Assembly: GCA_000165345.1 (NCBI GenBank)
Contig: CM000432.1
Location: 384,001-448,000 of the forward strand
DNA length: 64,000 bases
Reading direction: 5' to 3'
Part shown: one piece after another, positions 45,001-48,000 of the stretch
Position numbering within the stretch: the stretch's first letter is position 1
Layout of the letters: every line of letters starts with the position of its first letter
Position numbers: made by a program

Positions 45001-48000
45001 TGTTGACATAGTTAAGAAATCAACTACTTCAATCTTTCCTCCATTTTCATTAGATTCTCCTTCTAATCCTGTCTTAAGCTCTTCAATCATCTTCTTTTCT
45101 TCTGGTGATAGATCATCTACTGAACGAGAATCAATCTTGTTTAATATAATAAATACTGGTTTATTTCTAAATAAAGTTTTGATAGAATGGAAAAGTTTAG
45201 TTTGTTTCTCAATACTATAGCCACATTCTTCTGAAATATCGACAAAATATAAAATGCATGAATGAATATGTGCTAATGCTGTGATGGCTGTCATTTCTAT
45301 TGTATTCCTTTCATCTAATGGACGATCTAAAATACCAGGAGTATCAATTACTTGCCATCTAGCATAGTTGTAATCAAAGTGACCAACATATAAAGATTTT
45401 GTAGTAAATGCATATGGCTCAACTTCAACATTAGCATGAGAAACACAATTGATAAAACTACTCTTACCAACATTTGGATAACCACATACTATTAATGTTC
45501 TTGTTGTTGGATTAATACTTGGAAGACGTCCAATATGTTGCCTAACTTCTTCTAAGTACTCCAAAGGCGCCTGTAACTTCTTTAAACAAGTACACATTCT
45601 ACCTAATGCAGCTCTTTTTAACATTTTACATTTATATGGACTGTCTGCATATTTTAATAATCTCACATAATCTTTTGCCAAAGAATCAATAATATTCTTC
45701 GATCCAGAAATATGGCCTAATGCAAGCTTATAATGATCCCTATCATATAATACATTACATAGATCTGAATAAAATGGATGTATCTCATCTAATCTTGGAA
45801 ATTGCGTCAATATCATGCCTAATCTATCATGTATAGCTTGCTGGCAAAATTTTACTTTTCTCATATAAAATGATCTTATTCTACTAATTTGAAATTGCGG
45901 ATGTACTTGAGTCGGAGTCTTTCTTTGAGTCTTAGATAATACAATATCTATTAAGTCCTTGCTATTTGGTATAATAGTAATATCCTAATAATAAACAAAG
46001 ATATATTAATAAAGTTCATGCAGATTAATAATTTAGATTTTCAACTTACCTTAAATCTATGTCCTAAACTTGTTGAACTCATTTTGATACTTTTTTCTCT
46101 TCTTCAATATTCTTTTTTATTAATATTAATTTTTAAAACCTGTTAATTTCCACTTAATGTAAATGCTTGATATTTCTTTTTTCCAAAAATTGAGATATAT
46201 TGTTATTCTATTTGTTTCTTAAAGTCTAGGTTATTGTCTTTTAATCAAAAAAAAGAATATTTTTAATCAATTCATTAACCTAGTCTTTTCCTGACAATTT
46301 TTGAAAATTGAAAGTTTATTTATTGGCTCCATATAATTTATTACTTATTAGACTATTAATTAACTATCTCTCTATTTTTGACACTTTTAATTATTTAAAT
46401 TATTATACAGTTAGCTTTGACTTTAAAATCATTATAATATATACATTTATATACACTTTTTTTAATTAAACTTGAATTAATACCAGTATACTATTTTTAT
46501 TATTAGCCGCTAAAACTTTAGGCGGCATCTTTGGTCAATATTTATTTTGCCACTAAAAATTTTGAATAAAAAAAATTACATGTAAAGTAATATTAATAAT
46601 AAATAATAAAATTATTAATATTATAACTTCCATTCCAATATATAATAAGTCAATTTTATTGCTCTATATTTATATATTGATAATACTAAGATAGAGGTGA
46701 TGAAAGATAATATTAAATTTTACCAGTTTATTATACCAAAAAAGGATTCTAATTTATTAAAGTTTTTAAATGATGTTGAAATAATATACAAAGATGATGA
46801 AGCAGTTTTGTGCATTAAAAACAATAAATTCTCATTAGGTTCAAATAACGATGGAGTCACTTTTAATTCAATTATTAATTATCTCCAGGAAGATTTACTA
46901 GGAATATTTAAATTCGATTCAAATAATGAGAAAGATCATTATTCTGAAGCTGGAATTCCATTAGGCTTATACTATATGCTATCTATATCATATTTATGGT
47001 CCAAAATTATTCATATTCCTGAAAAAAAAATGTTTCTTGGCTTAATTTTAAGAAATATTGAAATTTTGAATCAATTCTTGATAAATAACACTGAAAAATC
47101 TCACATAAATAATTTATTTAATATGATGATTTTTTGTATTACAAATATTGTAATACAAGAATTTGATATTCTTGAATCTTTGATTAATGAAGATAAAAAA
47201 AAACTTGAAAGTAAATATTATAATACTAAGAATATGAAAAACACTAAATCAAGAAAAAGAAAGAATTCAAAATTTAACTATGAAATTGATGAAGATGATG
47301 ATTCTTTTAGTGAATCTGAAACAGAGTTTGATAATAATGACTCTTTTGATAAGGATCAAGTAGAGAACACTGATTTTGAAATTAATTTCAACGTTGAAAA
47401 TATTCAAAGTAGTAAACTGCTCAAAGATTCGTCCATTCTTGAAATTTCATTTCTATTAGTAAAATATTTAATCAAACTTTCCAAAAATTATATAAATATT
47501 AATTTTTCCACAATTGGTCTCTCTGAATGGTCATTAATACTATCTCTTAGAATTATTAATCTTTTGAAAAAACTAGTCGCTGAATATGAAATTGAAGCCT
47601 TCAATAACAAAAGTAAAATCAATCTTGTTAAATGGGAAAATTTGTCTGAAAATCTATTAATAAATATATTAAAATCCATTATTATTACGAAAAAATGTAA
47701 AGAAACGGATGAAGATGAAAATTTAAATAGTTGTTTATTTGACATTATTACGAATTGTTTTATAAATGGCTCAATTGACTTAATATCCAATGTAAATAAT
47801 GGCAACAACCCAAATAATCGAAATAATATTATTGTTAAAGATTTTCCAAGTTTTATAACAACAATTACAATACAAATTAGTGAAGAATTATCTAATAGTC
47901 TGTTTGTATATATCCTTGAAAATCTTGGAATCTATTGGATTAAAATGGATAAAATTGAAGATATAGGTGAAGATGATAACATTATTGTATATATAAGTTC

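Follow-up and report, generated by a model that had tools for sequence, protein, structure and literature searches.

NOG1 (GTPBP4 in human) is a nucleolar GTPase needed for the assembly of the 60S ribosomal subunit. The human GTPBP4 and yeast Nog1 chains of solved structures (6lss_4, 8esq_b, 8i9r_CH and 3jct_b) have the domain order NOG1_N, GTPase, NOG1 and NOGCT, and the same order is found in the orthologue of Cryptosporidium parvum, cgd4_1700 ('GNog1p. GTPase'), which is the subject of this analysis. The gene lies on chromosome 4, within a stretch of 64,000 nucleotides (nt) that we call the window and number from its first letter (assembly GCA_000165345.1, contig CM000432.1, positions 384,001 to 448,000 of the forward strand). 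A first-pass annotation, made from the letters of the window alone, had proposed that NOG1 is truncated at its 5' end in the open reading frame (ORF) track and that its true start lies in an 11-codon first exon, separated from the rest of the gene by a 65-nt intron. This two-exon model is almost certainly the true 5' end of cgd4_1700. It is also already known: present public annotations of C. parvum and at least ten other species of the genus have the same model.

A two-exon model for the 5' end of NOG1

The minus strand was read from 45700 to 46400 and the two-exon model was rebuilt by script. The resulting features are given below in window coordinates; a slash in a nucleotide motif marks an exon-intron border.

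46080..46082, minus strand: initiator ATG of NOG1 (cgd4_1700), in the A-rich 5' context tcaaaATGa; first in-frame ATG past the upstream in-frame stop
46050..46082, minus strand: exon 1, 33 nt, ATGAGTTCAACAAGTTTAGGACATAGATTTAAG, translated as MSSTSLGHRFK (11 codons); based on script translation and conservation
45985..46049, minus strand: phase-0 GT-AG spliceosomal intron, 65 nt, 18% guanine plus cytosine (GC), donor aag/GTAAGT, acceptor TTATTATTAG/gat
43939..45984, minus strand: exon 2, from GAT at 45984 to the stop codon at 43939; based on script translation
45865..45984, minus strand: 5' part of exon 2 without coverage in the ORF track, 40 codons, DITIIPNSKDLIDIVLSKTQRKTPTQVHPQFQISRIRSFY, an open frame with no ATG; based on translation, Pfam and codon-position bias
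43939..45864, minus strand: rest of exon 2, the 641-residue track ORF from Met52 to the stop codon, beginning MRKVKF; taken from the ORF list
46083..46696, no strand: AT-rich intergenic region, 614 nt, between NOG1 and a divergent gene of 1466 residues; taken from the gene layout

Every coordinate that had been proposed for the 5' end holds. The ATG at 46082..46080, which is also the start of the deposited 692-residue proteins, opens MSSTSLGHRFK and is followed by the GTAAGT donor at 46049..46044 and the 65-nt intron 46049..45985, which has a pyrimidine-rich tail and ends in TATTAG. As claimed, the junction TATTAG/GAT at 45984 restores the frame: the spliced coding sequence (CDS) has a length of 2079 nt and encodes 692 amino acids (aa) with no internal stop. 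The ORF of the track (641 aa) begins at Met52 of this model and is indeed truncated. The extent of the loss had been put at about 45 residues and is in fact 51 (42 positions of the Pfam profile), 40 of which are encoded by exon-2 codons that precede the first ATG of this exon.

The TAG of the acceptor is at the same time an in-frame stop codon immediately 5' of exon 2, and the frame contains no ATG between this TAG and Met52. Because the TAG closes the exon-2 frame on its upstream side and Met52 is the first in-frame ATG, splicing is needed for a start codon. We also considered an unspliced start and rejected it, as the sole ATG within the intron, at 46019, lies in another frame and the TAG stands directly before exon 2.

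According to the two-exon model, transcription of NOG1 would start upstream of 46082 (an inferred position), the spliceosome would remove the phase-0 intron and join the short exon 1 to the long exon 2, and translation from the ATG at 46082 would yield a protein of 692 aa that includes the whole NOG1_N helical domain. The track ORF of 641 aa is explained by the fact that a stop-to-stop ORF finder misses a start codon located in a separate exon. The 318 nt adjoining the ATG (46083..46400) have a GC content of 19%, and the intergenic region as a whole presumably holds the 5' untranslated region of NOG1 together with the promoters of NOG1 and its divergent neighbour. Rfam and transfer RNA (tRNA) scans of the whole window gave no match in or near the NOG1 5' end.

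The spliced model has a complete NOG1_N domain

The first-pass annotation had predicted that the N-terminal domain would become complete in the 692-aa model, and this was observed. For the spliced model, NOG1_N (Pfam PF17835) is matched at profile positions 1-159 of 160 with 159.3 bits (cut-off 22.9), in comparison to positions 43-159 and 113.8 bits for the track ORF. Profile positions 3-42 are supplied by 45865..45984, positions 1-2 by the exon-1 residues F10 and K11. The GTPase domain (Pfam MMR_HSR1, 70 bits), followed by the NOG1 domain (PF06858, 95 bits, cut-off 27) and NOGCT (PF08155, 89.6 bits, cut-off 27), is the same in both products, as are the two other domains, and all three score well above their cut-offs. 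The GTPase motifs G1, G3 and G4 are visible in the translation as GYPNVGKS, DTPG and NKID, and the protein has a basic C-terminal tail that ends in KHLFSGKRGMGKTDRR, as in the orthologues.

Nearly all of the recovered homology is carried by the 40 exon-2 codons before Met52, which agree with human GTPBP4 at nearly every residue. Exon 1 contributes the initiator methionine plus ten residues, of which only (H)RFK aligns with human and yeast NOG1. The resemblance of the restored block to the human and yeast proteins, as proposed earlier, was confirmed for a segment consisting mostly of exon-2 residues. The alignments with the solved chains are collinear from model residue 8 or 10 onwards: residue 4 of human GTPBP4 (6lss_4) pairs with model residue 8 (YNFK versus HRFK), and residues 4-6 of the fission-yeast, Chaetomium and budding-yeast Nog1 proteins pair with model residue 10, with expectation values between 1e-124 and 1e-137 over the first 299 residues.

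Orthologues of other alveolates that were derived from transcripts, and thus needed no intron modelling, have Y[KR]FK[DE]I as a contiguous motif, for example LYRFKDITVVPNAKDL in protein P0009. The proposed splice of the C. parvum gene yields HRFK/DITIIPNSKDL (slash: exon junction) and thereby the same contiguous motif.

Conservation of both exons across Cryptosporidium

For a test that does not depend on annotation, we compared the C. parvum window with the orthologous loci of C. muris, C. felis, C. ryanae, C. bovis, C. ubiquitum and C. canis. All seven species have a common layout, consisting of an ATG, 10-11 codons with AGATT(T/C)AAG at their 3' end, a GT(A)(A/T/G)GT donor, an intron, and the acceptor YAG/GAYAT. 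Intron lengths are 65 nt in C. parvum, 112 in C. muris, 49 in C. felis, 88 in C. ryanae, 96 in C. bovis, 66 in C. ubiquitum and 64 in C. canis. The length is not a multiple of three in five of the seven species, and read-through of the intron meets a stop codon in every one.

The mean pairwise nucleotide identity is 0.86 for exon 1 and 0.82 for the first 99 nt of exon 2, but only 0.51 for the intron core and 0.54 for the 100 nt upstream of the ATG. A contrast of this kind is to be expected where two coding exons flank a real intron. Exon 1 has eight variable sites, six of them synonymous third positions and two conservative replacements (S/N and T/A). Across the first 120 nt of exon 2, codon positions 1, 2 and 3 have 6, 2 and 35 variable sites, respectively, a bias from which we conclude that this segment is coding.

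Including C. hominis, C. meleagridis, C. tyzzeri and C. xiaoi in addition to the six species above, NOG1 of the other Cryptosporidium species consists of two exons with a phase-0 intron after ...RFK. The N-terminus reads M(S/N)S(T/A)SLGHRFK, continued by DIT in exon 2, and the full-length identity to the C. parvum protein is 77-98%, whereas the intron sequences are unrelated and the donors are GTAAGT, GTATGT or GTAGGT. The first exon of C. felis has ten codons. For the C. hominis orthologue, an identity of 99.9% and a ratio of non-synonymous to synonymous substitution rates (dN/dS) of 0.007 are listed (PMC4637869 supplement); cgd4_1700 is thus under strong purifying selection.

Candidate first exons were collected as every ATG-to-GT segment within the 614 nt upstream that can be joined to the acceptor in phase 0. 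There are six such candidates in the window and between 1 and 13 per species, and M(S/N)S(T/A)SLGHRFK is the sole one common to all seven genomes.

Public annotation of the gene

The exact 692-aa model is present at NCBI, from four C. parvum assemblies, as 'Nucleolar GTP-binding protein 1' (QOY42273.1, WKS77574.1, WRK31751.1 and KAL5369270.1), and no residue of these deposited proteins differs from the two-exon model. On chromosome 4 of three C. parvum assemblies, the annotated gene has a span of 2144 nt and a product of 692 aa, and this span corresponds to the 2079-nt CDS plus the 65-nt intron; the gene sequence of the window is identical to one of these assemblies and differs by a single base from the other two. 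In a protein-collection search, the Cryptosporidium NOG1 proteins had lengths of 679-692 aa and each covered 100% of the model. Deposits from six further species contain 692-aa orthologues that share this start, and five more species are represented by orthologues of 679-690 aa. The cluster of the C. parvum model also contains 692-aa orthologues of C. hominis, C. meleagridis, C. tyzzeri, C. ubiquitum and C. canis. Exon 1 is missing only from the 2004 Iowa II annotation, in which the entry EAK87950.1/XP_625765.1 (681 aa, labelled 'partial') begins with DITIIP and therefore represents exon 2 without exon 1; all later annotations have MSSTSLGHRFK.

A NOG1 protein of 641 aa occurs in the protein collection as well (P0121). 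It is a Logan entry only, with ORF calls from at least 24 genomic contigs of C. parvum, and we rejected the Logan contigs as NOG1 transcripts: the six carrying the 641-aa ORF are 9.6-15.8 kb long, multi-gene and genomic. For this reason, the 641-aa product is an ORF-calling artefact and not an isoform.

Another entry, POM82354.1 of C. meleagridis ('Myosin head family protein', 2181 aa, P0126), is a fused gene model that spans the equivalent of window positions 38712..46082 on the minus strand. Its residues 1-692 are NOG1 including exon 1, with 98% identity to the C. parvum model, and the remaining residues belong to the downstream myosin. The fusion probably explains why NOG1 and myosin entries are mixed in one 90% cluster.

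Transcript evidence and points against the model

Re-annotation of C. parvum Iowa using RNA sequencing (RNA-seq) raised the number of introns from 237 to 688 and the share of intron-containing genes from 4.3% to 10.8%; the introns have a mean length of 99 bp and a GC content of 22% (Isaza et al., 2015; PMC4637869). The NOG1 intron, with 65 nt and 18% GC, is within the size and GC range reported there. In the supplement text of the same study, cgd4_1700 appears in the dN/dS table only and not among the changed gene models (PMC4637869), and the supplements of the oligo-capped complementary DNA paper have no entry for it (PMC2722674). Microarray data show transcripts of the gene in oocysts (PMC3542205). 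The IOWA-ATCC assembly has a manually curated annotation in which, according to its authors, 100% of the introns have RNA-seq support (Baptista et al., 2022; PMC8744675), and this general statement is the sole transcript support for the NOG1 intron.

Several points weigh against the two-exon model. Beyond Cryptosporidium, the homology of exon 1 is thin, amounting to 2-4 aligned residues. A read or complementary DNA across the NOG1 exon junction was not found, so the actual splicing of the 65-nt intron is inferred. The membership of QOY42273.1 in the RNA-seq-supported IOWA-ATCC annotation is only probable, judged by accession ranges. A 32-nt exon-exon junction probe found no match among the JGI metagenome contigs; an exon-2-only control probe gave no match in these contigs either, so that the negative is uninformative, the collection being one without C. 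parvum. Finally, six of the seven introns have a branch-point-like YTRAY motif at a distance of 15-33 nt from the acceptor, but shuffled introns contain one in 51-65% of trials. As a support for the intron, this motif was rejected, because shuffled AT-rich introns give it about 60% of the time. The pyrimidine content at positions -20 to -4 of the NOG1 introns ranges from 0.53 to 0.82.

Age of the intron and alternative readings

The annotated proteins of three distant alveolates were mapped back onto their genomic loci over the first 60 codons. In Cardiosporidium cionae (protein P0011, locus L016), NOG1 is interrupted by an intron whose position and phase are exactly those found in Cryptosporidium. 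Exon 1 is again 33 nt long and encodes MASNPNLYRFK, followed by EIQVVP. Unlike the 49-112 nt found in Cryptosporidium, the intron measures 918 nt (gene nt 34-951) and has a GTACTC donor; the gene spans 5.9 kb and probably contains more introns downstream of the mapped codons. In contrast, Perkinsus chesapeaki NOG1 has no intron at the Cryptosporidium site and carries introns at codons 21.67 and 48, and Amoebophrya NOG1 has none within the first 60 codons. This distribution suggests that the codon-11 intron is old within Apicomplexa and a survivor of heavy intron loss in Cryptosporidium. In genomes with few introns, the survivors tend to be found towards the 5' ends of genes, and the survival of the NOG1 intron fits this general tendency.

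An old intron could also have been kept selectively, either because splicing near the 5' end benefits the expression of a ribosome-biogenesis gene or because its retention regulates NOG1. We give this idea a small chance. The narrower version, in which the gene model is right and the intron is retained or regulated as a control of NOG1 expression, would have retained transcripts run into a stop directly after codon 13. It draws on such immediate termination of read-through and on an intron position kept across the genus and in Cardiosporidium although Cryptosporidium lost most of its introns, but the intron is conserved only at its splice sites and the identity of its core (about 51%) equals that of flanking non-coding DNA, which argues against an embedded regulatory element, and the 5'-biased survival of introns is a general pattern that requires no special function. 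We regard a regulatory intron as decidedly unlikely.

A second alternative accepts exon 2 but places the start elsewhere, in another first exon more distant upstream, or dispenses with a first exon, translation being initiated at a non-AUG codon where exon 2 begins. The position is the one implied by the 2004 entry EAK87950.1, and five further phase-0 ATG-to-GT combinations are indeed available in the 614-nt upstream region. None of these five is conserved in another species; their donors (GTAATT, GTTTTA, GTATTA, GTTTAA and GTATAA) are weak, and the implied introns of 424-595 nt are long for the C. parvum genome. MSSTSLGHRFK with its GT donor, on the other hand, occurs in all seven species with a synonymous pattern of variation, restores the RFK motif and was adopted by the later annotations, which makes a different or absent first exon very improbable.

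A start at Met52 (ATG 45864), with a messenger RNA that begins inside the putative intron or further downstream and encodes a 641-aa NOG1 lacking the N-terminal segment, has next to no credibility: it is the longest ATG-initiated ORF and is reported by ORF callers on genomic contigs, but it is used by no public annotation, would lose about a quarter of the conserved helical domain, and leaves out 40 upstream codons that are conserved as protein, supply NOG1_N positions 3-42 and match the human orthologue.

Neighbouring genes and other features of the window

Next to NOG1, a myosin gene is located at 38712..43415 on the minus strand. Its product of 1567 aa contains a long repeat of the (E/K)ERIERE type near the C-terminus. 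The annotated length of the product is not the same in all assemblies and species: C. parvum entries have 1567 and 1528 aa, those of C. tyzzeri and C. meleagridis 1464-1494 aa. This suggests that the repeat varies in length or has collapsed during assembly.

On the other side of NOG1, the divergent neighbour occupies 46697..51100 on the plus strand. The ORF finder reports 1467 aa from a GTG at 46697; as the product has 1466 aa in public annotations, the ATG at 46700 is the real start. One assembly annotates 1002 aa only. The C. muris orthologue of this gene has a Pfam match to Cnd1, a condensin subunit.

The only Rfam and ARAGORN matches in the window are two divergent tRNA-Pro genes about 550 nt apart, at 3545..3617 on the minus strand (anticodon AGG) and 4166..4238 on the plus strand (anticodon TGG).

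Significance

Reading the sequence alone recovered a short first exon that both the stop-to-stop ORF track and the 2004 reference annotation had missed. Prokaryote-style ORF calls on eukaryotic contigs put 5'-truncated proteins into large collections, and the 641-aa Logan entry is an example of this. The corrected NOG1 model has been public for years in C. parvum and its relatives, so the result holds no new biology and its value is one of quality control.

Comparison with human and yeast Nog1

In comparison to human and yeast Nog1, the Cryptosporidium protein carries 4-6 additional residues ahead of the conserved [YHW]xFK motif, and its basic C-terminal region is divergent. By orthology to the Nog1 and GTPBP4 chains in pre-60S structures, C. 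parvum NOG1 would be expected to associate with pre-60S particles and to localise to the nucleolus.

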